A DNA stretch of 64,000 nucleotides from Candidatus Peregrinibacteria bacterium (GCA_963708185.1 OY970195.1:288001-352000); one strand, 5' to 3'; shown: positions 6,701 to 40,897, counted from the first letter of the stretch. Notes: a model not told the origin generated them from the sequence alone. Program-made: numbers and translations.

Positions 6701-6974
6701 TGGCGAATTCCTGTTTGGCGGGATTATCCGGGTAAAGTTTTTTGGCGAGTTTGTCGAAATTATCGCTCGGACCTTTTCCTGTATCCCATTCGGAAGATTC
6801 AGTTCGTTTGAGCAGGTCGCTGAGAACTTCGTTCCTTTGCTGCGGTGTCAGTTTTTCCTTGGATTCCGGAGCTGCGGCCGGTTTTTCCGGTCCTGCATAG
6901 GCCCATCGTTTCCCGCGGAAGCTCACGTCAACCTGGTGGTTGAGGAACAGTAATGTGCGTTTTTCGTTGAACAT
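780..6974 (-). CDS. Giant hypothetical protein (2064 aa) with SH3b-like and LysM-like modules and Gly-rich hydrophobic segments
   Basis: 6.2-kb uninterrupted ORF. GWV motifs (FNGWVEVGKL, DVGWVRKETV), a LysM-like TIKEGETYQSIA...LVIP, alternating Gly/hydrophobic strands and a Pro/Gly C-terminal tail. No Sec signal. Confidence 0.9.
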   Translation of the reverse strand: MFNEKRTLLFLNHQVDVSFRGKRWAYAGPEKPAAAPESKEKLTPQQRNEVLSDLLKRTESSEWDTGKGPSDNFDKLAKKLYPDNPAKQEFAKNTLDNAFGDGAARAQNASKLSEADCKYVRLEEGQLKFYKNDKFEAQNEIKLPTPATRITTPEVPGQPPEKKEGQPAAPVVAPEKKEKAEMTPEQKAALEYFKKAFPQAKPDQIRISPTETIGTGQKGALYLSSYMGTIQDPDYYNDAGQGRFLQPDNLRGGAYVPAEVMQGFVVEAPKKNGVMGKFVYVKMSADQYVGGKSEFNGWVEVGKLRNAQNHDEVLKTENAWTKEEYTAEKVNKGTYPVLSNTVLYSGKGKLAGTMLRMIEKGDRITVASERVRMVGDEEYVYATFEKNGSKDVGWVRKETVMSAATEKKAEEVAFKAPTEERADEAMVAKYYDRETGKVHFNGDKQAEKLITISDLFPNAKEGDKIRIKHASGGKSMEAFYNPDKEYVRWIKGKMEKHKGTFFYKNGQRVEIWDGDVILPAWEKEGTGESLADQEKRSYVEKRTIKEGETYQSIAQEAMFLPAIKKAFEGSKFSSQEKLDAYAALLKKYQTGNELYLVIPNPTEAGIPTAEALAEERYTSKADQYAEKFRKNREATEKAFRGSMHQYLENQVILRKSMLDAVNDDELWKKAWNGEGSTEIAGLDNLISVLKHPIFVEAGITEQNAREKILDLIQEGKNDRVDFEDVLDSFKIYIKKDGEPGKLGDYKDEVEENTKIMKENEKGMQAFEAKKGSGILKQTEIVKVVQEKMRLAEAQGLEPYSLVTKDQAKQYVAAVKALDEVKNDPDYQQWDKYRLASVRMGYLNYVLEEGGMLLQALGQLQMKQFKEAATATPEKMTPETGKCAAVLADVFHDSDKDAWRKDHPNGRSFAWEDVVAGTSQDESDTTAFGKYFDENAPVLRERSRLNKYTNEKGELDGVERMNEKDTCQELNRLMHKALLRLIAWKNNPTAAAEFINRYASESTKVNLPAKNSGETDEAYATRVAPMLTQSVESAFQNLKINNFGDLQLEKDSPEAYKQRIQDRKDLIRMGYYFDSRDEEKGLTESKEAGPQLSMNPMIRKIQEDAIAKGYPAGDAKKIESIFLGGIGLKIDTTKPLNQAFGVGLGTGIDLGQGFTLMVGVGVDQIGPHPNPMLGVAIRKGWKLDEAKRTEIGVSGGVGVGLTGPSIGGAIDFTWPVSSSLDMKAFAGGSAGILVAGVGGGIGIGKNFEAAQKNLETQIGGVDTKEIDAEKDPDKKYMMIINNPKVGPYFRSAASQFSDIESQKKVVLDLYQAWRSSVGTEAAKENSAPFISGGGIVAGFAEVGGVPVPFVGPYLTFTVSKTTLVYRRQSESSKDMDKVSEAQIQEAIVADAKKKNPGTNVQFKEVMAGQSGDVMVDAEGNIAIRKRNAQVDLAPFKEQPSLEKYNEALKPYDMKLVPDAATGLLEFQVFGALGNLQILMDPGMEKRGLVLKGNKVYLAPGANPELFITREDFYTPFPKKGSPMNTIVTITDTPKRTRSVISDEVSQSGSYLYRKSGKQWELVQAPNSQIGNTMYEANYNQNKANLETFHENVPGFNDAQWKAYEAKINGLPFVKEADPDLTAENVKELKDFSKKFLKNWTNLQKYKEYTTVTPNDSEETINTKRKNLAALIQLNAKEKAPKGLGTELNDLQMNFVMSELMDLSFTELEKAPDKRARFEQNLEWSKNAVLLPFFRKKIPELQAQGYNITSTPEQLTDLLVKRLLSNVQDQDLGKPGQQLGPNWLFSSVAGAVGTGLRGVPGYITQDKYGVLGLHEEDLSKSGVEGDLAKVILEMESPLDRNNDKTMAESPLAKKLIAMPGMWFVLGDTMANQAVEGMQKALNGETIDPNNAGFQEFKKILKGIRDTQLSGGNAFIYNAPNGNSFEFRLDTKVADAAHARCGNASFGVNEGIQIFARIKPGEGMLVAAGKENVATVSPETTAKFVSFGLAGVVTIEVGHEEAPPPPHKIPPPPKENKPGGGPGGKSIVNAGEKTGGGEHGTVPGKIGGDTGSGNPDNTPSGNPDEAP

Positions 6975-6983
6975 AGACGTTTC

Positions 6984-7538
6984 TTAGGAAATTTTATTAG
7001 GCGGGACATCGGGGAGCTCTCCTTTGAGAGCCTGGAGCGCTTGCATCGTCTGGTTCATCATTTCCTGTCTGCGCAGAAGGTATTCGTGGGTAACGGTACC
7101 TTCGCGGTCGATTTTCATTTCAAGAGGTTTGTAAAGTTCGGAAAGCATGATTTCATTGGAGCCTTTCGGTCCGGCAAAGAAGCGGAGGTCACCGTTGATG
7201 ATGGCGATAGTTTTGCAGTTTTTGCTTTGAAGGAACGCCCAGGCGTCTTCCACCGTTTTTCCCTCGGCCAGGTTGCTCTGGAGATTCTGTTTGATGCTTT
7301 CAGCGTTGAGCAGATTGTTTTTTTCCTGGGCCTTTTTGCCGAGATCGTTCAAGGCGAGGTTGAGGTCAGGATTAAAATTCGATTCAACGTTGAGATTGGT
7401 GTTGAATTTCTTCTCGATACGTTCCGCCAGGCTTCCGGGAGCCGGCGGTTGGGCCGAAGGTTTTTCCATTTTCTGGAAAACAAATTTTGCCTTCGTGAAG
7501 CTTGTTTCTTTGTTTTTGAGATACAGCAGGTTGTGCAT
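6984..7538 (-). CDS. Hypothetical protein (184 aa), partial paralog of the giant protein's N-terminus
   Basis: 9-nt gap to the giant gene; shares the motif CK-x-h-x-h-x2-G-x-L-[RK]-F-[FY]...NEI-x-L with it. Confidence 0.8.
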   Translation of the reverse strand: MHNLLYLKNKETSFTKAKFVFQKMEKPSAQPPAPGSLAERIEKKFNTNLNVESNFNPDLNLALNDLGKKAQEKNNLLNAESIKQNLQSNLAEGKTVEDAWAFLQSKNCKTIAIINGDLRFFAGPKGSNEIMLSELYKPLEMKIDREGTVTHEYLLRRQEMMNQTMQALQALKGELPDVPPNKIS

Positions 7539-7592
7539 AATTTTTGGGGTTTGTTTGTGTTTTTGAGTTTTTTGGTTTTAGTTAATCATAAA

Positions 7593-7621
7593 ATTATAGC
7601 AAAAAACGCTAAAACTTGCAA
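7593..7621 (-). promoter_or_regulatory. Sigma70-type promoter for the 184-aa/giant-protein operon
   Basis: Minus strand TTGCAA-17 nt-TATAAT with a TGn extension. Confidence 0.7.
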
Positions 7622-7669
7622 CGGTTTCGTGCCTTCGGTTAAAGTGGGGGTACCTTCAATTTTTACGTT

Positions 7670-8380
7670 ATGGAAAAACCGATCATTATCGTCAATTTTA
7701 AAGCCTATGAAAATGCCCATGGACAAAGGGCTCTTGAACTCGCCAGAATTCATGAGAAGGTCGCCAAAAAGACCGGGGTGGCTTTTGCAATCGCCGTCCA
7801 GCCGACCGACCTGCGCATGATCGCCGCCGAAGTGGATATTCCGGTACTGGCCCAGCATTTTGATCCCGTTGAGTTCGGGGCTTACACCGGCAATCTGTCA
7901 CTGCATGTTCTCAAGGAAGCGGGTGCTGTCGGGTCACTTTTGAACCATGCGGAACGCAAGCTTCCGCTGGACGTCATCGAAAAATCCGTTGAACTGGCAA
8001 GGAATAACGGTTTTTTTACTGTTCTCTGCGCCGACACCCCCTACGCCGGTAAAGCTCTTTCGGAGTTCGATCCGGATCTTATCGCCGTGGAACCTCCGGA
8101 ATTGATCGGCGGGTGTGTTTCCGTGGCGACGGCCAATCCGCAGCTGATTTCCGATGTTGTGGACATGGTGGGGAAGGGGAAAGTTCTCGTCGGTGCGGGC
8201 ATCAAGACCAAACAGGACGTGCACCGTTCTCTGGAACTCGGGGCAAGCGGCGTTCTTCTTGCTTCCGGTGTGACCAAATCATTGATGCCTGAAGAAGTAT
8301 TGATGGATCTCGCCCAGGGCGTCCTGGAGTTCAAGATGCACAAGAAAGATTCCCATGATTACGTGGAAAATTGCGATTAG
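7670..8380 (+). CDS. tpiA: Triosephosphate isomerase, short archaeal-type
   Basis: IIVNFKAY, LLNHAE, AVEPPELIG, VGAGI and GVLLASG motifs. Confidence 0.95.
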   Translation: MEKPIIIVNFKAYENAHGQRALELARIHEKVAKKTGVAFAIAVQPTDLRMIAAEVDIPVLAQHFDPVEFGAYTGNLSLHVLKEAGAVGSLLNHAERKLPLDVIEKSVELARNNGFFTVLCADTPYAGKALSEFDPDLIAVEPPELIGGCVSVATANPQLISDVVDMVGKGKVLVGAGIKTKQDVHRSLELGASGVLLASGVTKSLMPEEVLMDLAQGVLEFKMHKKDSHDYVENCD

Positions 8381-8390
8381 TTCCCGCTCA

Positions 8391-8419
8391 TTGTTTTAGC
8401 CAGACAAACGTTCTATAAT
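8391..8419 (+). promoter_or_regulatory. Sigma70-type promoter for hpf
   Basis: TTGTTT-17 nt-TATAAT. Confidence 0.55.
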
Positions 8420-8449
8420 AATTTTGATTTATTTCTTTAAAAGGTTTTT

Positions 8450-9022
8450 ATGCAGGTTTCGATCATTCAAAAACATATCAATTTGAGCGACAGCCAGAAG
8501 GACTACATCCAGGAAAAAATTGAACATCTCAAACACTTGGGGCAGCGCGTCGACGACGAGTCGACCCAGGTCCGCGTCGATATTGAACATAACAACGAGA
8601 AAACCACCAACAAGAACATTTCGCTGCAGGTCACGATGTTTGTTCCGCATGCCGTGGTACGCGCAGAGGTCCTCGGTATTTCACCGGAGGAAGCCATAGA
8701 TCTCGCGGTGGAGAAACTGAAAAAACAGATCGAACGATACAAGAACAAGCAGCATCGCCGCGACCAGTCCGGCAAATGGATCCCTTCCTCGACACTCGAA
8801 GAAATCTCATCGACGCAGGAGGCGACGGCACCTGTTCCAAAAATCACCAAACGTAAAAGTTTTTCCGACATCAAACCCATGCACGAGGAAGAGGCCGTGG
8901 AGCAGATGGAATTGCTCGGGCATGATTTTTTTGCCTTTCTCAACGAGGAAAACGGGAAATTTGGAGTTGTCTACAAACGTGAAGACGGTACCTACGGACT
9001 CCTTGAACTGGAGAATAAGTAA
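8450..9022 (+). CDS. hpf: Ribosome hibernation promoting factor, long form (HPF/RaiA)
   Basis: AIDLAVEKLKKQI and C-terminal KPM..EEAVEQMELLGHDFF..VVYKREDGTYGLLE. Confidence 0.95.
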   Translation: MQVSIIQKHINLSDSQKDYIQEKIEHLKHLGQRVDDESTQVRVDIEHNNEKTTNKNISLQVTMFVPHAVVRAEVLGISPEEAIDLAVEKLKKQIERYKNKQHRRDQSGKWIPSSTLEEISSTQEATAPVPKITKRKSFSDIKPMHEEEAVEQMELLGHDFFAFLNEENGKFGVVYKREDGTYGLLELENK

Positions 9023-9063
9023 AAATGTGAAAATTGTATTTTGAACATTTTTTAGCTTTTCGT

Positions 9064-10476
9064 ATGGAAATTCTACTTCCACTCTTGGGCCTCGCTTATT
9101 TTGTTTTTGCTTTGACCAACTTGAGGTTTGCGGTTCTGCTTTTGCCGCTTTTTTTTCCTGCATATCTTCTGAAGTTTGACGTCGGAGGGGTTCCTTTCCC
9201 TCTCGTGGAGGTTTTTATCTATGCGACGACTCTGGCTTGTGTTTTGCGGACGGTCTACGACCTTGTCAAGAAAAAATTGTCGTGGAAAGAGCTTTTCGCG
9301 CCTTATAAAAGCAGTTTGTTATGGGCCGTAGCCGGCATTGTCGTTGCCGCGGTGGTTTCAACCGTCATCACGCCCCAGTCAGTCGTGATGATGGACGGCA
9401 ATACCGTTTTTTACGGGAGAAAAGTCGCTTTGGGGATTCTTAAGAGTTGGATCATCGCCCCGCTCTTGATGTTGGGCCTTTTTGCCTGGATTATGAAAAC
9501 CAGTGAAGACATGGAGTTTGCGTTGAACAGTTACACCGTTTCAGCTGTGGTCTTGGCTGGATGGGGGATTTATCAGGTTTTAACCGGCCGGTACATCACT
9601 CCGGACGGCAGAGCGTCCGGGCCTTTCAACTCGGCCAATTATCTGGCGCTCTTTATCGCGCCGGCTTTATTTTATGCTTTGGTGCGTGCGAAGGATTGTA
9701 TCGTGACGCATGAAAACTCCTGGTTCCAGAGAATTTTGCATATTTTCCGCCGTCCGCAGGAACAACGGGAAAGGTTCATGTATGCCCTTGCCTGGAGCGG
9801 AGGTTTCCTGTTGTTGTTGTTCGGACTTTTGTTTACCAAATCGTATGCCGCTTTTCTTGCCGTCTTCGTAGTGTGTCTCATGTGGGGAGCGGTTCAGGTC
9901 AAAAACTGGAAAAAGTTTCCATGGAAAGTTTTGTTGATCCTTGTGGGAATCGTTGTTTTGTTGGGCATTGGACTGATAGCGTTGGACCCGGTCAAATGGC
10001 AGAAGTTTTTTGAACTGACGACGCGAACGTCTTCGGGTGTGAGAGTCGAAATTTATACGATTGCATCGGGGCTGCTGCTGCAACACCCTTTCCTGGGCAT
10101 TGGGCTGGGAATGTTCCCTGCGGCGTATCAGCTCCAAGGGCCCGTTATTCTCGGGCATAACCCCTATGAGTGGAACATGCTTCATCCCCATAACGAATTT
10201 CTGGCTTTCTGGCTGAATCTGGGGCTGATCGGCTTCGCAAGCTTTCTCTGGGTCATAAAGGTGTGTTTTCAAAAAGCCTGGAACTCTTTCAGGAACTTCA
10301 GGCATTTACAGCAAAACGGCCTTCAATGGTTCCAGGCGGTCGGATTCCTGATGTTCCTTATCGTTCTTTTCCACGGACTTGTGGACACGCCTTTCTTTAA
10401 AAACGATCTCGCCTTGATGTTCTGGCTGATCGTGAGCGTGATCGTCCTTCCCGTTTCGCGCAAGAAGGACTCGTGA
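9064..10476 (+). CDS. O-antigen ligase / oligosaccharyltransferase family membrane protein
   Basis: Multi-TM; RASGPFNSANYLA, HPFLGIGLG, HPHNEFL and FHGLVDTPFFKNDL. ATG at 9064 chosen as start. Confidence 0.88.
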   Translation: MEILLPLLGLAYFVFALTNLRFAVLLLPLFFPAYLLKFDVGGVPFPLVEVFIYATTLACVLRTVYDLVKKKLSWKELFAPYKSSLLWAVAGIVVAAVVSTVITPQSVVMMDGNTVFYGRKVALGILKSWIIAPLLMLGLFAWIMKTSEDMEFALNSYTVSAVVLAGWGIYQVLTGRYITPDGRASGPFNSANYLALFIAPALFYALVRAKDCIVTHENSWFQRILHIFRRPQEQRERFMYALAWSGGFLLLLFGLLFTKSYAAFLAVFVVCLMWGAVQVKNWKKFPWKVLLILVGIVVLLGIGLIALDPVKWQKFFELTTRTSSGVRVEIYTIASGLLLQHPFLGIGLGMFPAAYQLQGPVILGHNPYEWNMLHPHNEFLAFWLNLGLIGFASFLWVIKVCFQKAWNSFRNFRHLQQNGLQWFQAVGFLMFLIVLFHGLVDTPFFKNDLALMFWLIVSVIVLPVSRKKDS

Positions 10477-10479
10477 GGT

Positions 10480-11313
10480 TTATTTTTGTGGTTTATCGCT
10501 TTTTCTTTTTGCCATGGGGCCCGATGGAATTGTCGGGCGGTCATTTTGGTCCGGGTTTTCTTCCGTGGCCGGAGGATAAGGGGGCGGGAGCATGGCGTGA
10601 CTCGCGGCTTGTGAGACGGAAGCTCTGATTTTTGATATTTTCGCGGAAGCGGCCTCGGGGGTTCCGTACTGTTGTGAGAGTTCAACGATTTTTGCGCGGA
10701 TTTTGTTAAGAACCTCGCGTCTTGTTTCCTCAACTAATTCATTGTGATTCGAAGGTTTTTTTTCGGGAGCGTGAGGCGCCAAAAGGAGATCCATGTTGTC
10801 GGGTTCGTATGTCGGGATATTCCTGAATTCTCGATGATCCTGATTGATGAATGAAATAATTTCCGGTTCGAGAATGAACAGTGTTGAGGGTTCCAACGCG
10901 GACCACTCGTCAATTTCGTCCAGTACAAGACGCGCAAGTTCAATATTGATTGCCTCCGGGCTCGGCAGAGGTCCGTACAATGTGCCGCCGGATCTATCGA
11001 GGATTTTTCCTGAAATGAAAGTGAGCATGCTCCTGCGTTCGCTGGAATCGGTTTCGGTTATTTTCAAAGGCAGCAGTTTCCACGTATCGAAAGCCTTCAG
11101 CAGTGTCCCCCCGATTTCCCAGACGATTCTTTTTTCGCCCGGCATTTTTTCGAACCGTTGGTGCGTCTTCGCGAGTTCCAGCCTTTTTTTCGCGTCGATG
11201 CGATAGGTACCCGTAATTTTCCCTCTGTTTTCCGGGGGGATGGTTTGAGAATAGCGAGGCTTAGGGGCTTCGGATATTTTTTTCCTTAAGCGCTTTTTAA
11301 GGCGTTCGAACAT
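10480..11313 (-). CDS. Hypothetical protein (277 aa)
   Basis: Only substantial ORF in the gap, with an AT-rich upstream region; no recognisable family. Confidence 0.65.
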   Translation of the reverse strand: MFERLKKRLRKKISEAPKPRYSQTIPPENRGKITGTYRIDAKKRLELAKTHQRFEKMPGEKRIVWEIGGTLLKAFDTWKLLPLKITETDSSERRSMLTFISGKILDRSGGTLYGPLPSPEAINIELARLVLDEIDEWSALEPSTLFILEPEIISFINQDHREFRNIPTYEPDNMDLLLAPHAPEKKPSNHNELVEETRREVLNKIRAKIVELSQQYGTPEAASAKISKIRASVSQAASHAMLPPPYPPATEENPDQNDRPTIPSGPMAKRKSDKPQK

Positions 11314-11474
11314 AAAAACTCAAAGTTGGGGGTCGAGAATGTAAGAGGGTTCGAAGGGTTTATTTTTTGATTTTATAACATGGGGATTTTACACGAAATT
11401 CTCTCATATAGAAAACTTTTCTTTAAAATGATACAGTATCATTGCAAAAATATTGTGATACTTCCGTGAAATTT

Positions 11475-11852
11475 ATGGAGATTCTGACGACAATTTCCGG
11501 CACCGTGATGAAAGGCGTGCTGATGGGACGCAAAATGGGTTTTCCGACCATCAATGTTGCTTTCGATTCAACGGATCTGCCTTTTGGGGTTTATGCCGTG
11601 AGGGTGTATACTTCTGATGGTGTCTATAAAGGAGCGCTTCATTTTGGGCCCCGCAAAGTTTTGGGACTGATGGAGCCTTCGCTTGAAGTCCATCTTTTGG
11701 ATTTTTCCGGTGATCTTTACGGGCAGAAAGTGAAAATCGACGTGTTTGAAAAAATAAGGGACACAAAGGATTTTGATGATATGGATGCCATGAAGCGGCA
11801 AATCCGGTTCGATGTCGACGCGGTGAGGGCTACCGATATACCATTGCAGTGA
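11475..11852 (+). CDS. ribF: Riboflavin kinase (monofunctional, RibF C-terminal domain only)
   Basis: GRKMGFPTIN, GVYAV and EVHLLDFSGDLYG; no FAD-synthetase domain. Confidence 0.9.
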   Translation: MEILTTISGTVMKGVLMGRKMGFPTINVAFDSTDLPFGVYAVRVYTSDGVYKGALHFGPRKVLGLMEPSLEVHLLDFSGDLYGQKVKIDVFEKIRDTKDFDDMDAMKRQIRFDVDAVRATDIPLQ

Positions 11853-11855
11853 CGT

Positions 11856-13208: not shown

Positions 13209-13210
13209 TT

Positions 13211-14116: not shown

Positions 14117-14117
14117 A

Positions 14118-15215: not shown

Positions 15216-15239
15216 GCTTTAGCAAACGCAGGGGGAGTC

Positions 15240-15269
15240 TTGCATTTCAAAGGTTTTTAGGGGTATAAC
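15240..15269 (+). promoter_or_regulatory. Probable promoter for the dnaG-rpoD operon
   Basis: TTGCAT-18 nt-TATAAC. Confidence 0.45.
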
Positions 15270-15292
15270 ATATTGCCCGGTAAAAGTTTTTT

Positions 15293-17065: not shown

Positions 17066-17086
17066 CGTTAACCCCACTCTCTTTAT

Positions 17087-18219
<1,133 letters not shown>

Positions 18220-30035: not shown

Positions 30036-33000
30036 TTACTCTTTTTTCTTTTTTTGCTTCTGTGAGTACTCCTGCCAGTCGACGAGGATCGGGGAAGCCA
30101 CGAAGATCGAGGAGTAGGTACCGGCGATGATACCTACGATCAGCGCCAGGACAAAGAAGCGGATGCTTTCGCTGCCGAAGATGGCAAGTGCGGCGAGCGT
30201 GAGGAATACCGAGAAAGAGGTGTTAATCGAGCGGGCGATGGTTTCATTGACGGCCTGATTGGCAACATCGGCGAAAGTTTCGTCGCGTTTCTGGTATTTG
30301 AGTTTTTCGCGGATACGGTCGAAGACGACGATGGTATCGTGTACAGAGAAGCCAAGCACCGTCAGCATGGCCGTGATAAACAGCGCGTCAATTTCAACCC
30401 CGAATATCACGCCAAAGTAGACGTAGATTCCGAGCATGATGCCCAGGTCGTGCAGCAGGGCCACGATGGCCGACAGACCGAATCTCCACTGTCCCACGTG
30501 GCGTGGAACCTTACGGAAGGCGAAGGCGATGTAGAGCACGATCATCAAGCTGGCGATGAGGACGGCAAAGATGGCGCGGTATCGGAGGCTTTCTCCAACG
30601 GTCGGTCCCACGGTGTTGAAGCGTGTTTCTTCGAAATCACCGAGGATTTTTTTCAGTTCCGGAATCATCTGGTCGTGGGCGTCGGAGCTGATGTGGCGGG
30701 TCTTGATGATGAAGCTGCCCTGGTCGCTCGGGACGACGTGAGGAGTTCCAATGTCGATGAGTCCGTTGCCGTCGGCGGCTGAAAGGGTCGGAGTCGTAGC
30801 GGCGGCAGCGTCGACGCTCGTAACGGTGAGGTCACCGAATTGCTGGGTCGCTCCTGAATCAGCCTGTTGCGTTGAAGGAGCGATACCGCCTTCTTTGTTG
30901 AGCTTGTCGGCGACGGTCGTGAAGGCCTGTTCAATTTGCTGAGGAGTCACATCCGTTTTGGCAAACTTGAATTCCATCAACGTTCCACCGGTGAAATCCA
31001 GGCCAAGTTTCAAGCCGAAAACAGGGATTCCGATGATGGCGAGGATGAGCAGGGTTCCGGAGATGTAGTAGGTGAGCTTGCGGTTTTTGATGATCGGAAC
31101 GAGCTTGTCTTCTTTTTTCTTCGGTGCGCCGAATAACCAGAGGTTGTTGGACAACTTGGTGTTGATCAGTGCGGCGATAAGCGTCTTGGTGACGGTGATG
31201 GCCGTAAACATCGAGACGAGAATACCCGCGGCGAGGTTGAAGGCAAAACCCTGGATGATAGAGCTTCCGAAATAGAAGAGGATGCCGCAGGTGATGAGCG
31301 ACGAGAAGTTTGAGTCGCGGATACTGCTCCAGGCGCGGTCGAACCCGATTTCAATGGCGGAAGCAAGGGTGCGCCCGTCACGGAGCTCTTCTTTGATTCT
31401 TTCAAAGATAAGAATGTTGGCGTCGACGGCCATACCGATGGAGAGGACCACGCCGGCGATACCGGCAAGAGTCATGACGATCGGGGTGGAGAGGATGAAG
31501 CTTATGAAGAAAAGGATGAAACAGGACAGCACGAGGCCGATGGCTTTTTCAGGGCCTGAATCGCGCGAGTTGATGACTTTCATTACGATGAACACGAATA
31601 TGCCGAGTGCCAGCACGATGGATACCCAGAGCGGCAGCGCCATTTTGATGAGGAAGAGCATGATCATCGAATAGACCGCGAGAGCGATTGTCGCCAGCAC
31701 GCCCGGGATGCGGTAGTACAGGATCATGAACAACGCGACGAGCAGGAAGCCGATCAGACCGGCCCATAAACTTTTCGTCAGTGCATCCTGACCGAGGGTC
31801 GCGCCGATGGTATATTGACCGGCGAGGACAATCGGAGCCGGGATGGCGCCGGTGTTGAGGTCACGGGCGAGGTTTGTTGCCTGGTCTACGGTGAAGTTTC
31901 CGGAAATCTGGGCTTTTCCTCCCGTGATTTTTTCGTTGACGACCGGGGCTGAAATGAGCTGGCCGCCGACAAAAATGGCAACCTGTTTGCCGACGTTCCT
32001 GGAAGTGATGTCACCGAAAAGTTTCGCACCGTCAGCGTCAAACTGGATGGAGACGTACGGCTGGTAGAGTTGGTCGAACTGCACGTCTGCGTGGACGAAC
32101 TGCTGTCCGGTCAGGCCGGTGGTCTGCCATGCGTCCGGTGTAGTGTCGAAGAAAATTTTCTCATATTTTACCTGGGGTTCGGTGGTCGTGTTGCTGGAAG
32201 CTTCGGTTACGTTGTCCGCCTTGATGATGTGGAATCCGAACTCGGTTTGAGTGACCGGTGAGAGGTCTCCATTTTTCTGGAGAGCGAGCGCAGCGGTTTC
32301 AAATTCTTTGGCGTAGGTTCCGTCACCGGTGACCGGCTGATCGAGCACTCCACCCTTGTCCTTGTTGGAAGCGTCGTCGGAATACTGTTTGGCGAGGTCG
32401 TCGAAGTTCGCTCCGCCCTGAAGTTTCTTGAGAACGTCGTCGGCCAGTGCTTTCGCTTCATCCTGTGAGCGCGTGACGCTCGCGTCGGCACGGGTAGCTC
32501 CCTTGTAAGCGATGAGGATGTGGCTGACTTTTACCTGTCGTTTTTGTGCATCAGTTTTTTGCTGGTCCCGTTTGTCGAGCAATTTCACGACATAATAGCC
32601 GTTGCTCTGAGTCAGGCTTCCGCTGGCGTCCACGGTGTATTCTCCCTGGGCCGGAATGAGCTGAGGATAGGTATCACCGGGTTTGAGTTTGTTGAAAAGG
32701 ATGTCGGTCAAACTAGAAGAGACCTGGTCTTTAAACTGGTAGTCGACGTCGTTGAAGGTGACTTTTCCGGGGCTGGAAAGCTGTTCCTCTTTTCCTGCCA
32801 CGGCCAGATCTTCGCCGTTCTGGACTCGATCAAGTAAACTCTGGGCTTCGTTTTTTACATCGGTTTGCGTCGTTGTGTCCTGAGTCGTGCGTTGTTCCTT
32901 GAATTCGAGCTGAATGGTTTTTCCCACGACTTTTTTCGCTTCTTCAAGATCTTTGACACCGGCGAGTTCAACGATGAGGTGTTGTTCTTCGCCGACGGTG

Positions 33001-33296
33001 GAAAGATAGATGTTCGGTTCGGAAACGCCGAGGCTGTTGACGCGGTTGTTGATGACGTTCATGACCCCGTCCACGATGCTCGGCTGGTCAGCCTGGGGAA
33101 CTTTTTGGAGGTCGATCTTATAGTCGAGCTGAGATCCCCCCTGGAGATCGAGTCCGAGGTGATATTTGCTGTCGAGGACTCCTTGCGGCGTTGGAGGGAA
33201 TATAGATTTTTGCTGTTCTGCAGGCAGGTTAATAAACCCGAGAATCAAAGCGGTAAGGATGATGACTCCTACTTTGAGAAAATGGCGGTTCTTCAT
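30036..33296 (-). CDS. secDF: SecDF fusion with parvulin-type PPIase domains inserted in the SecD extracytoplasmic loop
   Basis: LGLDLQGG, GMAVDANILIFERIKEE, GLDFTGGT, GFSVHDTIVVFDRIRE and GTYSSIFVA; insert VSHILI...FDDLAKQYSDD..KGG.L...TEFGFHIIK. Confidence 0.95.
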   Translation of the reverse strand: MKNRHFLKVGVIILTALILGFINLPAEQQKSIFPPTPQGVLDSKYHLGLDLQGGSQLDYKIDLQKVPQADQPSIVDGVMNVINNRVNSLGVSEPNIYLSTVGEEQHLIVELAGVKDLEEAKKVVGKTIQLEFKEQRTTQDTTTQTDVKNEAQSLLDRVQNGEDLAVAGKEEQLSSPGKVTFNDVDYQFKDQVSSSLTDILFNKLKPGDTYPQLIPAQGEYTVDASGSLTQSNGYYVVKLLDKRDQQKTDAQKRQVKVSHILIAYKGATRADASVTRSQDEAKALADDVLKKLQGGANFDDLAKQYSDDASNKDKGGVLDQPVTGDGTYAKEFETAALALQKNGDLSPVTQTEFGFHIIKADNVTEASSNTTTEPQVKYEKIFFDTTPDAWQTTGLTGQQFVHADVQFDQLYQPYVSIQFDADGAKLFGDITSRNVGKQVAIFVGGQLISAPVVNEKITGGKAQISGNFTVDQATNLARDLNTGAIPAPIVLAGQYTIGATLGQDALTKSLWAGLIGFLLVALFMILYYRIPGVLATIALAVYSMIMLFLIKMALPLWVSIVLALGIFVFIVMKVINSRDSGPEKAIGLVLSCFILFFISFILSTPIVMTLAGIAGVVLSIGMAVDANILIFERIKEELRDGRTLASAIEIGFDRAWSSIRDSNFSSLITCGILFYFGSSIIQGFAFNLAAGILVSMFTAITVTKTLIAALINTKLSNNLWLFGAPKKKEDKLVPIIKNRKLTYYISGTLLILAIIGIPVFGLKLGLDFTGGTLMEFKFAKTDVTPQQIEQAFTTVADKLNKEGGIAPSTQQADSGATQQFGDLTVTSVDAAAATTPTLSAADGNGLIDIGTPHVVPSDQGSFIIKTRHISSDAHDQMIPELKKILGDFEETRFNTVGPTVGESLRYRAIFAVLIASLMIVLYIAFAFRKVPRHVGQWRFGLSAIVALLHDLGIMLGIYVYFGVIFGVEIDALFITAMLTVLGFSVHDTIVVFDRIREKLKYQKRDETFADVANQAVNETIARSINTSFSVFLTLAALAIFGSESIRFFVLALIVGIIAGTYSSIFVASPILVDWQEYSQKQKKKKE

Positions 33297-33326
33297 AATG
33301 CGTTAGAGGATAAAAGTTTTAAAATT

Positions 33327-33743: not shown

Positions 33744-33750
33744 ACTATAA

Positions 33751-34830: not shown

Positions 34831-34834
34831 GGAG

Positions 34835-36370
34835 TTAGGTTAGGAGGCTTTTTCCGGTCATTTCTTCGGGTTGTTGAATGTCGAGCATCCTGAGGATGGT
34901 CGGAGCGATGTCTTCAAGGCTTCCTCCGTCGCGAAGTTTGTTTTCTTTATAACGGGGAGAGCACAAGAGAAAAATGACGGGGTTTTTGGTATGGGAAGGA
35001 CAGGGTTCTCCGTTTTCTTCATAGATCATGTATTCGGCGTTGCCGTGGTCGGCGGTGATGATGAGGTCGTACCCTTTTTCAAGCGCTTTTTGGCTGATGC
35101 GTCCGATGCATTCGTCCACGACTTCACAGGCCGTGACAGTGGCCTTGTAGTCGCCGGAATGCCCCACAAGGTCCGTGTTTGCAAAATTCTGGACGATAAG
35201 GCTGTAATCGCTCGAGTCCATTTCCTTAATGACGGCGTCGGTGACGCCGCGTGCGCTCATTTCAGGCTTCTGCGCATATGAAGGGGTTTTCGGTGAGTCG
35301 ACGAGAACTCGTTTTTCGTTTTTGAAAGGAGTTTCGACCTGACTGTTGAAAAAATAGGTGACGTGAGCGTATTTTTCGGTTTCGGCTATCCGCAGCTGAT
35401 GAAGTCCGTTCTGTTCAATGACGCTCCCGAGGTTGTTTTTGACCTGTAGTGTGGGAAAAACCACAGGAGCAGTTTTCGAATAATCCCCAAAACAGACGAA
35501 GAAAGGCCTGACCGTTTTTTCAGGTTTGAAGCCAATCTCGGTTTCTCCAGTGAAGCATTGCGTGATCTGCCGCGTACGGTCGGTCCGGAAATTCCAGAAA
35601 ATCACCGCATCCTTATCGGTGATGACGCCGGCTTTATCAAATACAATGGCGTCGATGTAATAATCGCTCTGGGCTCCGCGCGTATAGGCGTTTTGAATAG
35701 CCTGCAAGGGATCGGTCTCTTCATGGCCTTTGCCGAGCGTGTAGAGGTCGTATGCGACTTGGGTGCGGTCCCAGTTTTTGTCCCGGTCCATGGCGTAATA
35801 GCGTCCGATCATCGTCGCGATTTTCGCTTCAGTGGAAGATCCCGGCCCCATCTGAAGTTCGGCGATTTTTTGCTGGATCATCGTGACGTATTTGTCTGCG
35901 CATTTTTCAGGAACGTCGCGGCCGTCGGTAATGGCATGGATATAGGTTTTTGGGACACCCTGATCTTTCGCCAGCTTCAGAAGCGCAAAAAGATGGTCGG
36001 TGTGCGAGTGCACGCCCTGATCAGAAATCATTCCGAGAAGGTGGAGCGCTCCGTTGTTGTTTTTCACCCTTTCACAGGCTTCGAGAAAAGCCGGTTTCGT
36101 AAAAAAATCTCCATTGTGGATGGATCGGTTGATCTCTTCAAGTGCCTGAAAAACGATCCTGCCAGCACCAATGGTGAAATGTCCGACTTCAGATCCTCCC
36201 TGGGTGCCCTCGGGCAATCCAACGCTTTCTCCGTGAGCCTTCAGCAGGGTGTGTGGGTACTCTTTCTTCAGCTGTTCGAGATTCGGCATCTTGGCATGAG
36301 TGATGGCGTTTCCCGGGTAGTCTTTACCCTCGCCGAAGCCGTCGAGGATCATGAGGTACACTTTATTCAT
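34835..36370 (-). CDS. gpmI: 2,3-bisphosphoglycerate-independent phosphoglycerate mutase
   Basis: ILDGFG, GSEVGH, DGRD, GRYYAMDRD, AETEKYAHVT and TADHGNAE. Confidence 0.98.
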   Translation of the reverse strand: MNKVYLMILDGFGEGKDYPGNAITHAKMPNLEQLKKEYPHTLLKAHGESVGLPEGTQGGSEVGHFTIGAGRIVFQALEEINRSIHNGDFFTKPAFLEACERVKNNNGALHLLGMISDQGVHSHTDHLFALLKLAKDQGVPKTYIHAITDGRDVPEKCADKYVTMIQQKIAELQMGPGSSTEAKIATMIGRYYAMDRDKNWDRTQVAYDLYTLGKGHEETDPLQAIQNAYTRGAQSDYYIDAIVFDKAGVITDKDAVIFWNFRTDRTRQITQCFTGETEIGFKPEKTVRPFFVCFGDYSKTAPVVFPTLQVKNNLGSVIEQNGLHQLRIAETEKYAHVTYFFNSQVETPFKNEKRVLVDSPKTPSYAQKPEMSARGVTDAVIKEMDSSDYSLIVQNFANTDLVGHSGDYKATVTACEVVDECIGRISQKALEKGYDLIITADHGNAEYMIYEENGEPCPSHTKNPVIFLLCSPRYKENKLRDGGSLEDIAPTILRMLDIQQPEEMTGKSLLT

Positions 36371-37186
36371 TTAGATTTTGAGAAGGGTCAAGTACCAGGC
36401 AAGGATTTCATTTCCGTAAAGGATGGTAGCAAAAGTTCCAAAAACCAGAAAGGGTGTAAAGGGGATTTTTGATTTCGCTTTGAGGGCTTTGATCGCAAGA
36501 AGAATGATGCAGAGGATGGCTCCGATGAGATAGCTCAGGCTTACCGCTACGATGAGCAGTTTCCATCCGAACATGACGGCCATGGCCAGTGCGACGTACA
36601 CGTCGCCTTCTCCCAGCCATTTCCCCTTTGAGATGAGACGTTGTCCCCCAAAGAAGACCAGTGCCCCTCCGACGGCGATGATAATGCTTGGAAAGTCGGC
36701 GGCTTGCGTCAGGAGCGTCCCCAAAAGGCCGACGACGATAAGCGGATACACAAGGACGTCGGGAACTTCCATGTATTGGAGATCGAAAAAGAAAATCCCG
36801 ATGAGCAGTGTACTGTTGACGGTCCAGAACAGGTACTCTAAAGCGGCCGCTCCGTCGATGGCATAGTTTCCCAAAACCGTCGCGTTATCCACGATGAAAG
36901 GAAAGCGCAAATACATGAGCAGGAATATGAGCGCCGTGGTGATCTCCAGGAAGAAGTAGTAGATCGAGATCGGTTTGTGGCAGTAACGGCAACGACCGCC
37001 CAGCAGGATGTAGTTGAGAACGGGAATGAGATCGAGCGTGCTCAGATTTTTTTTGCAGTGAGGACATCGTGATCTTCCGATGATGGCTCCTTTTTGTTTA
37101 TGCTTGAGACGGTAGATCACGACGCTGAGGAAGCTGCCGACGCTCGCTCCGAGAATGGCGAGGAAAATCATGACGATCGCTGACAT
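36371..37186 (-). CDS. pilD: Prepilin peptidase
   Basis: GSFLSVVIYRL, RSRCPHC, GRCRYC, FFDL, GEGDV and IPFTPFL. Confidence 0.95.
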   Translation of the reverse strand: MSAIVMIFLAILGASVGSFLSVVIYRLKHKQKGAIIGRSRCPHCKKNLSTLDLIPVLNYILLGGRCRYCHKPISIYYFFLEITTALIFLLMYLRFPFIVDNATVLGNYAIDGAAALEYLFWTVNSTLLIGIFFFDLQYMEVPDVLVYPLIVVGLLGTLLTQAADFPSIIIAVGGALVFFGGQRLISKGKWLGEGDVYVALAMAVMFGWKLLIVAVSLSYLIGAILCIILLAIKALKAKSKIPFTPFLVFGTFATILYGNEILAWYLTLLKI

Positions 37187-37197
37187 GTGGAAGGGGA

Positions 37198-38688
37198 TTA
37201 GTGGATAGTGGTTGGTCCGACGATATTCGCCGTGGCGATGGAAGGATCCGATTTTGTTTTTGCGATGAGCGTGTTATAGCGTTCTGCGGCGGCGTTGCCG
37301 ATGGAGTTCCCGCTGCCGAGCTGATTGGCTTTGACGTAGAAGCTCAGGGCTTTGTCGAACTGTCCGCGTTTTTCCCAGAGCCAGCCCAGATTCAGATAGG
37401 CCGCGTCGAGTTTGGGGTCAAGTTTGAGCGCCTCCTGCAGATTTTTTTCGGCGTCGTCGAGCTGTCCGGTTCCGACCATGGCCCACCCGATGAGGTTATA
37501 GCTCATCGGCTGACCGGGATGGCTCTTGAAAGCTTTTTGTGCCAGCGCCAGCGCCTTGGAAGGTTCGTTGAGTTTTTCGATGTAAAGCCACATCGGACGA
37601 ATGTAATAGTTGATGTTGTCATCGTTTAACGACACCACGTTTTCATACAACTGCGCGGATTTGTCGTACTGGTTAAGCTCAAGATAGATTTCGGCGAGCT
37701 TCTGGTCAACCTGGATGCTGGGCTGGAACCCGAGATTTTTTGCCTGTTCAAGAGCCGATGCCGCCTGCTGCAGGTTGTTTTGCCCGTAGTAGGCCAGACC
37801 CAGGTAGAAGAAAGTTTCAGGTTTTTGCGGATCAAGAAGTTTTGCCTGTTCCAGTGACTGTACGGCGTCCTGATACTGTCCGATGTTGAGATATGAATAA
37901 CCGAGAATGATCCAGGCGTCGCGGTAGTCTTTTTCATCCTTGATGACCTCGAACAGCAAAGGAATGGCCATCTGGTACTCTCCGGTCTGGGCATAGCTGC
38001 GGGCCAATAGGGTTTTGAGATGGGTCGGTTGTCCTCCCTGGTTGAAGTCGAACTCGCTGAAAGCTCCGAGATAATTCTGGGCTTTCTTGCTGATGTCTTC
38101 CGATCCGCCGAGGTCGACGGCTCTCGTCAGAAGATTTTTGCTGTTTGCATAGTCGCCATAGTAGGCGGCGAGGATTCCTTTGTAGTATTCGACGGTCTGG
38201 TTGGTGTCGGCGGTCAGGCTGTTGAAGAGCGTCCGGGCTTCATCGGTTTTTCGTTCCTGGAGCAGCGTTCGGCCCAGGTAGATTTGGGCATCTATATTCC
38301 CGGGTTGGAGCTCGACGGCTTTTTTGAAATTCTCTTCAGCTTTGGCGTAATCGGCAGTCAGAAGCTGGATGCGTCCTATTTTCAGAAAGGGATCCGCATT
38401 CGAAGGGTCGAGAGCGTTCGCCTGCTGGTATTCCGCAATGGCCAGACTGTAGTATTGATTGTCTTCCAGGAGTTGACCGCGGTTGATGTGTTCGGTGTAG
38501 GTCTGGGCTCTTGAAACTTTATCTTCGGCTAAGAAACTCGGCAGTGCTTCCTGCGTTTGTTGCTGCGTCGGAGCTGCGGGATAGAACGGTCCGCCCGGTT
38601 GAAAGGGAGGGATTTCGAAAACGTAGAGTCCCGCCACGACGAAGCCGAGGAAAATGATTGTCGTCAGAAATGTGAGGATTTTTTTCAT
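37198..38688 (-). CDS. Membrane-anchored TPR repeat protein
   Basis: N-terminal TM followed by many TPR units (e.g. AYLNLGWLWEKRGQFDKALSFY). Confidence 0.92.
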   Translation of the reverse strand: MKKILTFLTTIIFLGFVVAGLYVFEIPPFQPGGPFYPAAPTQQQTQEALPSFLAEDKVSRAQTYTEHINRGQLLEDNQYYSLAIAEYQQANALDPSNADPFLKIGRIQLLTADYAKAEENFKKAVELQPGNIDAQIYLGRTLLQERKTDEARTLFNSLTADTNQTVEYYKGILAAYYGDYANSKNLLTRAVDLGGSEDISKKAQNYLGAFSEFDFNQGGQPTHLKTLLARSYAQTGEYQMAIPLLFEVIKDEKDYRDAWIILGYSYLNIGQYQDAVQSLEQAKLLDPQKPETFFYLGLAYYGQNNLQQAASALEQAKNLGFQPSIQVDQKLAEIYLELNQYDKSAQLYENVVSLNDDNINYYIRPMWLYIEKLNEPSKALALAQKAFKSHPGQPMSYNLIGWAMVGTGQLDDAEKNLQEALKLDPKLDAAYLNLGWLWEKRGQFDKALSFYVKANQLGSGNSIGNAAAERYNTLIAKTKSDPSIATANIVGPTTIH

Positions 38689-38694
38689 GATCGT

Positions 38695-39189
38695 TTAAGA
38701 CTGGGCAACGAGTTCGCGCATGCGGAGACTGTTGGCATGGCAGATGGCCAGTGCCAGCGCATCGGCCGCATCATCGGGGTGGGGCATTTCGTCCATTTCC
38801 AGGATCAGCTGGACCATTTTCTGGACCTGTCGTTTTTCCGCTTTTCCATAGCCGCAGACCGCTTCTTTGACCTGCTGGGGTTTGTATTCGGCGATCTCTT
38901 GAGGTCCTAAGGCGAGCTGTTGGAGGATGGCGCCGCGGGCCTGTGCGACCTGGATGGCGGTTTTGACGTTTTTGCTGAAAAAAATTTCTTCGATGGCCAC
39001 GGCCTGGGGTTTCCATTCTTTGACGATCGTCTGCAGGTCGTCATAGATTTGCCGCAGTCTTTCCGCAAACGGAAGACCCGGTGGTGTTTTAATGCATCCG
39101 TAGTCGAGAAGCTGGTGTTTTTGTCGTCCCGTTTCAATGATGCCGAATCCGATGGTCGCAGTTCCGGGATCAATGCCTAAAATTCGCAT
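38695..39189 (-). CDS. ruvC: Holliday junction resolvase
   Basis: ILGIDPG, AIEEIFF, GYGKAEK.QV and PDDAADALA. Confidence 0.98.
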   Translation of the reverse strand: MRILGIDPGTATIGFGIIETGRQKHQLLDYGCIKTPPGLPFAERLRQIYDDLQTIVKEWKPQAVAIEEIFFSKNVKTAIQVAQARGAILQQLALGPQEIAEYKPQQVKEAVCGYGKAEKRQVQKMVQLILEMDEMPHPDDAADALALAICHANSLRMRELVAQS

Positions 39190-39231
39190 GTGGACACATC
39201 AAAAAAGTTATCCCTATTGTAGCGAATTCTC

Positions 39232-40638
39232 CTAGATTTTGATAGTGGAAATCACTTTTTCCGAAGTACTGGCGTTGCTGATGATGACGATCTTATCGTC
39301 TTTTTTTACGAGCCGGTGTTTCAGGAGGATTTTTTTGATGTCCGGAACGAAATGTTTGAAATTGATGTCGTGGACGATGATCTCTTTGATTCCCCATACC
39401 AGTGAAAGCTGACTTTTGACTTTTTCGTCGGGAGTGATGGTGACGATGGGGATGTATGTCCTGTGTTTTGCAACGTGCTGCGCGGTGAATCCCGACTGGG
39501 TAATGGTGACGATGAGTTTCGCGCCGATGTTCATGGCGAGCTTGGTGCCGTTCATACAGGTGGCGTAGGACACTGGCGTGTTTTCGAGGAAGAGGCGGTT
39601 GGGCTGGAAATCTTTGTGTTTTTTCAGGAATCCTTCCACCGATGTCGCAGCTCTGGCGAGGGTTTTCACCGCTTCGATCGGATATTTGCCGACGGCGGAT
39701 TCGTTGGAGAGCATCACTGCATCGGAGTGGTCGAAGACGGCGTTGGCGGCGTCGCTCATTTCGGCGCGCGTCGGACGGGGGTTTGTCACCATCGACTGAA
39801 GAATCTGCGTCGCGGTGATGACGGGTTTTCCGTGAATGTTGGAAAGACGGATCATTCTTTTCTGCACGAGGGGGACCTGTTCGGCTGGGATTTCCACACC
39901 GAGGTCTCCGCGAGCCACCATGACGCCGTCGGTTTCGATAATGATGCTTTCGAGGTTGTCCACGGCTTCGTGCCTTTCGATTTTGGCGATGATTTTGGCG
40001 CGCCCTTTTTTGCGCCGGATGAGTTCACGCATCTCGATGATGTTTTTTGCGGACTTCACGAAAGACATCGCCACGTAATCAACGTCGTTCTTGAGGGCGA
40101 AAAACAGATCCTTCTTGTCTTTTTCGGTAATGGGGTTCGCGCTGATGGAAGCGGTCGGGACGTTGATGCCTTTATGGCTGAAGATGGTTCCTCCGTTGAT
40201 GACCCTGCAGGTTATGTCCGTCGGAGTCACTTTGAGAACTTCCATTTCATACAGTCCGTCGTCCATCAGGATATGGTCGTTTTTTTTGACGTCCTTCGGG
40301 AGGTCCTTGTATTGGACCGGGATGATGTTGTCGTGACCGGTAATTTTTTTCGTCGTCAGGACGATGGTTTGTCCTTTTTTGATGGTGATGCCTTTTTCGG
40401 GCATTTCGCCCACGCGTATTTTCGGTCCCTGAAGGTCCTGCATGATGGCGACAGGAACGCCGAGTTTTTTTGAAATCCGGCGGATGTTGCGGATGAGTTT
40501 CGCGAATTCGGCATAGTCCCCGTGCGAAAAATTAAGCCGGGCCACGTTCATGCCGGCTTTGATCATTTTTGCGATCATTTGTTCGCTTTCGCAGGCAGGC
40601 CCCATGGTGCAGACGATTTTTGTGTTTCTTTGATTCAT
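39232..40638 (-). CDS. pyk: Pyruvate kinase
   Basis: TKIVCTMGP, RLNFSHG, DLQGPKIR, AKIE and MVARGDLG. Confidence 0.98.
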   Translation of the reverse strand: MNQRNTKIVCTMGPACESEQMIAKMIKAGMNVARLNFSHGDYAEFAKLIRNIRRISKKLGVPVAIMQDLQGPKIRVGEMPEKGITIKKGQTIVLTTKKITGHDNIIPVQYKDLPKDVKKNDHILMDDGLYEMEVLKVTPTDITCRVINGGTIFSHKGINVPTASISANPITEKDKKDLFFALKNDVDYVAMSFVKSAKNIIEMRELIRRKKGRAKIIAKIERHEAVDNLESIIIETDGVMVARGDLGVEIPAEQVPLVQKRMIRLSNIHGKPVITATQILQSMVTNPRPTRAEMSDAANAVFDHSDAVMLSNESAVGKYPIEAVKTLARAATSVEGFLKKHKDFQPNRLFLENTPVSYATCMNGTKLAMNIGAKLIVTITQSGFTAQHVAKHRTYIPIVTITPDEKVKSQLSLVWGIKEIIVHDINFKHFVPDIKKILLKHRLVKKDDKIVIISNASTSEKVISTIKI

Positions 40639-40648
40639 TGAAAGTATT

Positions 40649-40897
40649 CTATCCTACTGTGAGGTTTTGGAAAATGTCCAGTTTGGCGTTGGCAGAAGTT
40701 ACCGTCTGTTTCGCCTTTTCTTTGTAGCCGTTACTGACGTCTTCGCCGGAAGAAGGGAGAGCTTCTTTCTGCGTTTCGGGAGACTGAGGAGGAGCTTCCT
40801 GCGTTTTTTCCACGGGAGGTGGCTGGGTCTGCTGTTCAGGGTTCGGTTTGGCCTGTTGCTGGAAGATCAATCTGTTTTCTTTGAAAATGTTCATCAT
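40649..40897 (-). CDS. Small hypothetical protein (82 aa), Q/P/E-rich
   Basis: ATGA overlap with the upstream gene; N-terminal FKENRLIFQQQAKP motif. Confidence 0.7.
   Translation of the reverse strand: MMNIFKENRLIFQQQAKPNPEQQTQPPPVEKTQEAPPQSPETQKEALPSSGEDVSNGYKEKAKQTVTSANAKLDIFQNLTVG

Follow-up and report, generated by a model that had tools for sequence, protein, structure and literature searches.

Encapsulation peptides of microcompartments and encapsulins are short terminal peptides, joined by poorly conserved flexible linkers to unrelated cargo, and a single partner reads them in trans. SepF and the C-terminal peptide of FtsZ likewise use a short terminal peptide on a flexible linker as a docking device, and in type III and type VII secretion modules, such as those of the LXG proteins, a small helical partner is found beside a large, variable protein. 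A short N-terminal tag that may be analogous to such signals is described here from a Candidatus Peregrinibacteria bacterium. It was first noticed at the starts of three proteins, of 2064 amino acids (aa; the giant protein), 184 aa and 82 aa, encoded in a 64,000-nucleotide (nt) stretch, called the window below, which comprises bases 288001–352000 of a single-contig genome of 1,437,033 bp (GC content 0.50, completeness given as 99%). The long frames of this genome are open under table 11. Ultra-small Candidate Phyla Radiation (CPR) bacteria are thought to live on other cells, and to our knowledge nobody knows how the many giants among their proteins that lack a signal peptide get to the cell surface or into contact with a host, or what cargo the conserved VirB4 machine of the phylum moves. 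The original prediction for this window, made from its sequence, took the three N-termini for a shared candidate export or targeting leader. The resemblance among them is confirmed as real; the interpretation was half right, and is partly supported.

Conservation and Distribution of the Tag

The tag exists and is N-terminal only; its conservation is at the protein level, it is confined to a single order, and about 45 unrelated clusters of cargo proteins carry it. The translations of the three founding N-termini agree exactly with those first reported, and the strict pattern drawn from them has just three matches when the complete 1.437-Mb genome is read in six frames (26,504 segments of 30 aa or longer), all of them these same N-termini. 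Statistics within the genome are weak: profiles built from three of its four tags did not recover the omitted one (best rank 5, at E 0.68; the others outside the top 8). Single-sequence phmmer searches within the genome had no power.

Within the genus, orthologues of the giant protein retain the hydrophobic patch and the F-x3-R-hydrophobic-A-Y core in 4/4 genomes, and those of the 82-aa protein retain K-R-F-[V/I/L]-F-Q, also in 4/4. A codon alignment of the giant's tag has 45 synonymous and 76 non-synonymous differences (six pairs, 32 codons), and four different codon choices were seen for the core Arg and for Leu residues. Since conserved residues show synonymous differences, the tag region is translated and under selection at the protein level. 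The true starts are not downstream of it. Database homologues of the giant agree with this: 13 of 16 start with the full tag at an N-terminus called by other pipelines. Among the other three, one starts inside the tag with the core kept, one is untagged, and one is a shorter database entry, of 1524 aa, from a contig of 5.9 kb.

A profile built from tags outside the genus has the tag of the 82-aa protein as its top match in the whole six-frame genome (E 0.003). In the genome's frames of at least 250 aa, five of the six matches to a profile trained on out-of-genus tags alone lie within the first 70 residues (expected fraction 0.156; binomial p 5e-4), compared with 0/2 in a reversed-sequence control. 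A blind six-frame search with a tag profile, at a threshold of E <=0.01 per genome, matched 78/201 genomes of the order; by family, 25/35 in f1, 30/52 in f17, 5/13 in f9, 5/16 in f15, and 0/28 in f6. Outside the order there were matches in 2/295 genomes (from a phylum sample of 301), about the chance rate. Forty of the order-wide matches were examined, chosen by E-value (mostly <1e-3, a few to ~3e-3) and frame length (at least 247 aa) from those not previously examined; shorter frames (e.g., 40, 47, 63, and 112–126 aa), which may be false or truncated, were left out together with the matches already examined. In all 40 the tag begins at positions 1–29 of the stop-to-stop frame, beside a Met, in frames of 247–1613 aa.

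Over all loci collected, there are 76 distinct N-terminal tags as against two internal matches at >=10 bits. The original description, of an element tied to the N-terminus with a flexible linker after it, is borne out. BLASTP sorts 70 cargo sequences into 45 clusters, an upper estimate, with some of the sequences cut by locus ends. A 29-position model of the tag found only two of 1.84 billion representative proteins at E <=0.001, both of them tandem-repeat translation artefacts, and full-text searches of the literature on Peregrinibacteria, Peribacteria, and Patescibacteria found no description of such a tag.

Core, Linker, and Predicted Structure

The refined core reads [F/L]-F-x2-[K/N]-R-[F/L]-[V/I]-[F/Y]. 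In a right-anchored alignment of 33 tags, with the core Arg as position 0, this Arg is the sole near-invariant residue (32/33); the one Lys in its place is that of the 184-aa protein (K-F-V-F). Position +3 is F in 27 and Y in 5, so that [F/Y] accounts for 32/33. Elsewhere preferences are looser: K 13, N 8, S 5, and A 3 at −1; F 16 and L 11 at +1; V 19 and I 12 at +2; Q 12, A 7, and E 5 at +4; and G 11 and P 8 at +6. The first Phe, at −4, had been thought conserved and is present in only 18 of these tags. Long forms carry an L/F-rich hydrophobic patch 12–16 residues before the Arg, and short forms begin 7–9 residues before it; tag length ranges from 13 to 37 residues around a fixed core.

The original motif also included E-K-P, and this part has not stood: within the genus, the 184-aa subfamily alone retains E-K-P. 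It is absent from three of the four giant orthologues, among which E-A-K, E-E-E, or E-K-L is read in its place, and from all four 82-aa orthologues, which do not retain A-K-P either. Judging from these alignments, E-K-P is a loosely conserved linker start, outside the core. Over the 30 residues after the core the linker has a composition of E 14%, K 11%, A 11%, P 9%, and G 8%.

In an AlphaFold2 model of the 184-aa protein, tag residues 1–35 have predicted local distance difference test (pLDDT) values of 44–53, have no secondary structure, and are not packed on the domain that follows. The tag profile shows no hydrophobic periodicity of either alpha (100 degrees) or beta (160–180 degrees) type.

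Properties of Tagged Proteins

At least nine proteins of this genome are tagged; the six beyond the founding three came from relaxed patterns and profiles (Table 1). Searches of Pfam-A, NCBIfam 20.0, and PHROGs 4 gave no family over the cut-off for any of the nine, and none has a transmembrane (TM)-like window; four tagged proteins from a genome of another family of the order also gave no family over the cut-off. The nine show no BLASTP similarity to each other outside the tag, the giant/184-aa pair excepted. No homologue of the 537-aa protein was found in 40 relatives, a PDB sequence search with the 1222-aa protein had no match, and an ESM Atlas search yielded no usable one. The tag is absent from proteins of known families, and its carriers are many, unrelated, and without signal peptides, in agreement with what was first suggested from three examples.

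Cargo statistics were taken from 65 tagged proteins of at least 150 aa, compared with a crude proteome of 1041 proteins. TM-like 19-aa windows occur in 0/65 tagged proteins vs. 426/1041 in the proteome, and a hydrophobic N-terminus (a 15-aa window with a Kyte-Doolittle mean >1.6 in the first 40 residues) in 1/65 vs. 288/1041. The grand average of hydropathy is −0.66 for the tagged proteins and −0.22 for the proteome. In composition the tagged proteins have 11% K, 9% E, and 0.24% Cys, the last compared with 0.84% in the proteome.

The Giant and 184-aa Proteins

The founding proteins had been presented as dissimilar cargo. This stands for the carriers at large, with their roughly 45 unrelated clusters, but not for the giant and 184-aa proteins, which are paralogous at the N-terminus. 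Residues 2–132 of the 184-aa protein align to residues 6–143 of the giant (BLASTP E 2e-4), and iterated searches and alignment stretch the similarity to ~200 residues; the first ~200 residues of the giant are a paralogue of the smaller protein. As the two share their start by paralogy, they are not an example of dissimilar cargo. The shared domain, ~150 residues long with invariant G, F, L, and I positions, is new, whether free or as the N-terminal domain of the giant. It has no Pfam match, and the AlphaFold2 model of the 184-aa protein, a small alpha/beta domain with residues 50–140 at pLDDT ~80, finds no counterpart among PDB structures by Foldseek at E <=0.001.

In the giant, tag and linker are followed by this domain (to ~residue 200), a long hydrophilic body containing a Gly-rich hydrophobic stretch, and a Pro/Gly-rich tail. 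The Gly-rich hydrophobic region, at residues ~1090–1330, is glycine-zipper-like, and it is the last 100 residues that are Pro/Gly-rich (window ~780–3700). The giant has no Pfam, NCBIfam, PHROGs, or PDB sequence match and no TM-like 19-aa window. The cell-wall-binding-like modules originally attributed to it were not recovered (0 Pfam families at E <=0.1).

Pairs consisting of a small protein and then a giant with the same starting domain recur across genera. The giant of the pair is mostly tagged; the small protein is tagged in some genera and untagged in a subfamily of ~158–171 aa. The gene neighbouring the pair in the window is tpiA (TIM confirmed by Pfam), and in a genome of another family of the order a tagged giant divergently adjoins a gene with a triose-phosphate isomerase-like N-terminus, the latter recognized by inspection only. 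Homologues of the 184-aa protein are found in 20/41 related genomes and in the protein database, and its minus-strand gene is therefore real. A 259-aa, TTG-started antisense frame overlaps this gene and the start of tpiA (Table 1); it wins a naive longest open reading frame (ORF) gene call, yet is spurious. In the same direction after the giant gene come genes for a protein of 63 aa with a single TM segment and for one of 1015 aa that has a classical signal peptide; scanning the downstream genes with Pfam was uninformative.

A Small Helical Family Beside Tagged Genes

A small all-helical protein family, which is new, is linked on the chromosome to tagged genes, many of which have it immediately upstream. 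Directly beside ftsZ and ftsA in this genome, four tagged genes are interleaved with four genes of this kind, whose products are of 101–120 aa and which precede tagged ones (Table 1). Also in this cluster are a FemAB gene, lying divergent, and an untagged 1139-aa protein that has a hydrophobic stretch rich in Gly. Two of the small proteins are clear paralogues (E 6e-7); those of 101 and 120 aa show weak similarity only (E 0.0016 and 2.3e-4). The family is well conserved, with a C-terminal end of A-[E/D]-x-L-L-x-x-L. Its model is all-helical (pLDDT 83) and matches no PDB fold at E <=0.001, and Pfam scans of its members returned no recurrent family. Members are present in 89/201 genomes of the order, and in 3/28 of f6.

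In 11 genomes the tag match starts between 14 nt inside and 61 nt past the 3' end of a small helical gene, on the same strand; a rough estimate of our own puts the chance expectation for such an adjacency at ~0.005. In eight more genomes, judged by eye, the next gene starts with a lower-scoring tag, in four families including f2, f16, and f17. The pair usually has a FemAB-family gene lying divergent to it. In a genome of another family of the order, three consecutive tagged genes come after those for a small protein of 124 aa and an untagged 1461-aa protein (Table 1); none of these has a Pfam family. In the window, the 109-aa helical protein encoded just ahead of the 82-aa one, in the place that the small helical family takes elsewhere, was compared with that family, and at an hhalign probability of 0.2% its membership is not demonstrated. 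A complex prediction for a small helical protein with the first 60 residues of the 537-aa protein scored 0.00, which is no answer, and was used neither way.

Possible Roles of the Tag

The explanation tentatively favoured here, though it falls short of being probable, is a targeting tag acting in trans, most likely for envelope delivery or non-Sec export, with the small helical protein helping. The tag would be a lineage-specific modular recognition signal, in which three hydrophobic or aromatic residues after the Arg form the end, and a disordered linker, acidic and rich in Pro and Gly, would connect it to the cargo. The tag would stay unfolded when alone and act in trans, as its unpacked state in the model favours, through binding by one common reader protein or machine. 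This reader would thereby gather proteins that lack any other sorting signal and are highly hydrophilic, poor in Cys, quick to evolve, and in many cases giant. Their destination would be the cell envelope, or the outside by a route that is neither Sec nor Tat, and the small all-helical protein encoded immediately upstream could act as a dedicated chaperone or adaptor. We infer the common reader, the destination at or beyond the envelope, and the assistance of the small protein; for this last, partner module, the clusters of three to four tagged genes, one each in this genome and in a genome of another family, speak in favour.

A number of points weigh against targeting in this sense. No reader or export machine was identified, and no tagged protein has a domain revealing its destination. 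Proteins that are K/E-rich, coiled-coil-like, and Cys-poor are no less characteristic of the cytoplasm than they are of the surface, and a tagged cluster beside ftsA, ftsZ, and a FemAB gene fits a role inside the cell or at the division site equally well. There is no conserved cleavage site after the core (counting from it, Gly at +3 in 11/33 and at +4 in 8/33). Individual tag-profile scores are low, at 8–34 bits, so that the counts lean on a short and degenerate model. As to the partner, no gene shown to belong to the small helical family precedes any of the three tagged genes in the window, and co-occurrence of tag and family across genomes (45 with both, 33 with the tag only, 44 with the partner only, 79 with neither) gives an odds ratio of 2.4 (Fisher p 0.003), which is only moderate, related genomes not being independent.

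It is possible, if somewhat unlikely, that the tag is instead an intracellular docking motif, tethering coiled-coil-like, K/E-rich proteins to a cytoplasmic hub; the membrane's inner face, the division apparatus, or a filament of the cytoskeleton could serve as one. The layout of motif, disordered linker, and body would suit such a motif, as would the richness of the tag in aromatic and basic residues, the low Cys content and lack of TM segments in the 65 proteins, the position of the four-gene tagged cluster next to ftsZ, ftsA, and the FemAB gene, and the fact that no secretion machine correlates with the tag. However, with neither hydrophobic periodicity nor a helix in the model, the tag is not a classical amphipathic membrane anchor; the very fast turnover and giant size of the cargo are more typical of surface or effector proteins; and no hub was identified.

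More doubtful is the proposal that the tag directs proteins into an undescribed export or host-delivery route independent of Sec and Tat, with helical chaperones and with fast-evolving, unfolded-prone giant surface or injected proteins as its cargo, possibly as the long-sought substrates of the phylum's orphan VirB4. The original prediction had spoken of a secretion or processing leader, and nothing in the analysis demonstrates export, cleavage, or a tie to VirB4 or pili. It had also pointed, speculatively, to the pilus machinery and to a lone VirB4 ATPase, which is encoded in the window (Table 1). This VirB4/TraC-like protein is not matched by the VirB4 N-domain model PF03135, and in the window there is no linkage between its gene and the tagged ones. 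Across the order it is found in 193/201 genomes, at 70–92% identity, compared with 78/201 for the tag, and in f6 in 24/28 genomes, compared with 0/28 for the tag. With the ATPase near-universal in the order, its presence or absence says nothing on the tag either way. The type IV system of Patescibacteria is reported to be widespread in the phylum and essential for epibiotic growth of one cultured member, and to be mostly unlinked to VirB3 and VirB6 genes in Gracilibacteria; the part of that account drawn on here names no substrates for it (PMC12102498). A link between tag and VirB4 is an attractive possibility, and should be taken as nothing more.

The VirB4/TraC-like gene itself is a frame of 647 aa here and of 700–1038 aa in relatives, and a 370-aa ORF without a Pfam family overlaps its start (Table 1). 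The gene may be split, frameshifted, or miscalled at its start in this genome.

A basic residue beside three contiguous hydrophobic ones resembles the binding preferences of chaperones, and the Arg-hydrophobic core could accordingly be a DnaK- or SecB-like chaperone site, or an N-terminal degron for an AAA+ protease, by which long disordered proteins are held or cleared. The exposed and unstructured state of the tag in the model, and the long, disorder-prone cargo, are what such a quality-control or turnover signal would call for. It is improbable all the same: one would not expect generic sites to keep within the first 30 residues or to form a conserved module of 20–30 residues in a single order, and the link to a dedicated small protein family would be left unexplained.

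A shared 5' gene segment with no shared protein function, spread by duplication or recombination or else kept for translation initiation in a genome almost without Shine-Dalgarno sites, is quite improbable. The giant and 184-aa proteins do share their start by paralogy, the tagged genes do cluster, and a Shine-Dalgarno-like core lies upstream of only 44/583 long genes. Conservation is nevertheless at the amino-acid level, with synonymous change free; different families of the order share the conserved residues on cargo without similarity; and the length of the tag varies while its core is fixed. That the three N-termini resemble each other by chance and were picked after the fact can be dismissed: the failure of the leave-one-out profiles within the genome, a pattern defined from the same three sequences, and low profile scores might suggest it, but it is refuted by the conservation of the tag in orthologues, its recurrence across the order and near absence outside, its N-terminal position in every match examined, and the positional enrichment found with an independent profile.

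With its one invariant Arg, the tag is a computational handle by which dozens of unannotatable "dark" proteins can be grouped into one functional set, and a peptide bait for finding its reader. Family f6, a sister family in which no tag was found, is a built-in contrast group. Should the destination prove to be intracellular, the motif and linker would still make up a new modular system, and the partner proteins a new family.

Other Features of the Window and Genome

Features mentioned in the text are collected in Table 1. The genome-wide count of Shine-Dalgarno-like cores given above (44/583) refers to a stretch of 20 nt ahead of the longest-ORF start; what lies upstream of the tagged genes is instead rich in A/T. 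In the window, SecD and SecF domains are found in one protein, with a PpiC-type peptidyl-prolyl isomerase domain (residues 236–362) inserted, and a protein with a tRNA-guanine transglycosylase domain has it only at residues 394–763, the first ~390 residues being without a family. Two further long ORFs have no Pfam family at E <=0.001.

Table 1. Coordinates of tagged genes, their tags, and other features (window positions are counted from the first base of the window; genome positions from that of the contig).
Feature	Position	Strand	Basis or remarks
Giant tagged protein gene, 2064 aa	window 780–6974	−	translation
N-terminal tag of giant, 32 codons: hydrophobic patch, F-x3-R-W-A-Y, linker start	window 6879–6974	−	translation; orthologues
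184-aa protein gene, directly upstream of giant gene	window 6984–7538	−	homologues in relatives and protein database
N-terminal tag of 184-aa protein, 27 codons, core K-F-V-F	window 7458–7538	−	translation; database orthologues P0007–P0012 retain tag
Antisense frame, 259 aa	window 7041–7820	+	spurious
SecD/SecF protein, 1086 aa	window 30036–33296	−	
Prepilin peptidase gene	window 36371–37186		
82-aa protein gene: tag, Pro/Gln-rich linker, conserved C-terminal stretch of ~30 residues	window 40649–40897	−	translation, orthologues
Short-form N-terminal tag of 82-aa protein, 18 codons, core R-L-I-F-Q	window 40844–40897	−	translation, orthologues
109-aa helical protein gene, stop overlapping start of 82-aa gene	window 40894–41223	−	coordinates, translation
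tRNA-guanine transglycosylase domain protein, 766 aa	window 47187–49487	−	
ORF, 1179 aa	window 48678–52217	+	
ORF, 370 aa	window 55521–56633	+	
VirB4/TraC-like ATPase	window 56539–58455	+	matches P-loop_TraG, AAA_10, DUF87, TraC_F_IV
ORF, 855 aa	window 60316–62883	+	
710-aa tagged protein	genome 199395–201527	+	
1222-aa tagged protein	genome 875775–879443	−	
Cluster of four tagged and four small helical genes beside ftsZ and ftsA	genome 1132746–1145756		
1086-aa tagged protein	genome 1133138–1136398	+	
293-aa tagged protein	genome 1139888–1140769	+	
537-aa tagged protein	genome 1142678–1144291	+	
373-aa tagged protein	genome 1144635–1145756	+	
Three consecutive tagged genes, 1325, 360, and 2093 aa, in another family of the order	G040:C6:58000–77000		

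Comparison With Known Sorting Signals and Cargo Systems

With Sec, Tat, and type IV prepilin signals the tag has in common its N-terminal position and basic residues at the very start. A Sec signal peptide is rejected by the absence of an h-region (1/65 by the 15-aa window, 0/65 TM-like). A Tat signal is rejected on the single near-invariant Arg, the missing h-region, and the lack of TatC, for which PF00902 has 0 matches in the genome and matched 11/14 control genomes. The window does encode a prepilin peptidase (Table 1); for a type IV prepilin signal, the 33-tag alignment lacks the pattern of Gly at −1, Phe or Met at +1, and Glu at +5, and there are again 0/65 TM-like windows, so that this candidate is rejected too. 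The Cys-rich exported proteins with signal peptides described in the part of PMC4736985 considered here are unlike the tagged set.

Double-glycine leaders, processed by peptidase-containing ABC transporters, are closer in kind, as non-hydrophobic, Sec-independent N-terminal leaders of 15–30 residues, and a minority of tags do have Gly-Gly after the core. Their pattern of hydrophobic positions is unlike that of the tag, however, and Gly at +3 (11/33) and +4 (8/33) is too infrequent for such a leader; the three window proteins have no Gly at the paired positions. The C39 peptidase domain (PF03412) has 0 matches in the genome, and the candidate is rejected. Known type IV secretion signals are C-terminal or internal, unlike the N-terminal tag, and the likeness here is the presence of a VirB4/TraC-like ATPase in the genome.

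The layout of the tag, a short terminal peptide with a flexible linker on unrelated cargo, may be analogous to that of encapsulation and other cargo-loading peptides. It differs from them in having no amphipathic-helix periodicity and in its giant, non-enzymatic cargo. An actual encapsulin or microcompartment cargo peptide is rejected for want of a shell gene, with 0 matches to PF04454 (encapsulin) or PF00936 (bacterial microcompartment) in this 99%-complete genome.

A type VII substrate is also rejected, as there is no EssC-like second ATPase: the model PF01580 matched one ordinary 758-aa FtsK-type frame over the cut-off, and had one sub-threshold match of 18.7 bits. The tag, at 15–35 residues, is not a helical domain of 200 residues, and the model of the small protein matches no solved fold. 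In organization, nevertheless, the tagged genes are like the chaperone-effector modules of type III and type VII secretion, in that the gene for a helical protein of ~100–120 aa directly precedes that for a large protein, variable except for its conserved N-terminus, and with cargo that is Cys-poor and fast-evolving.

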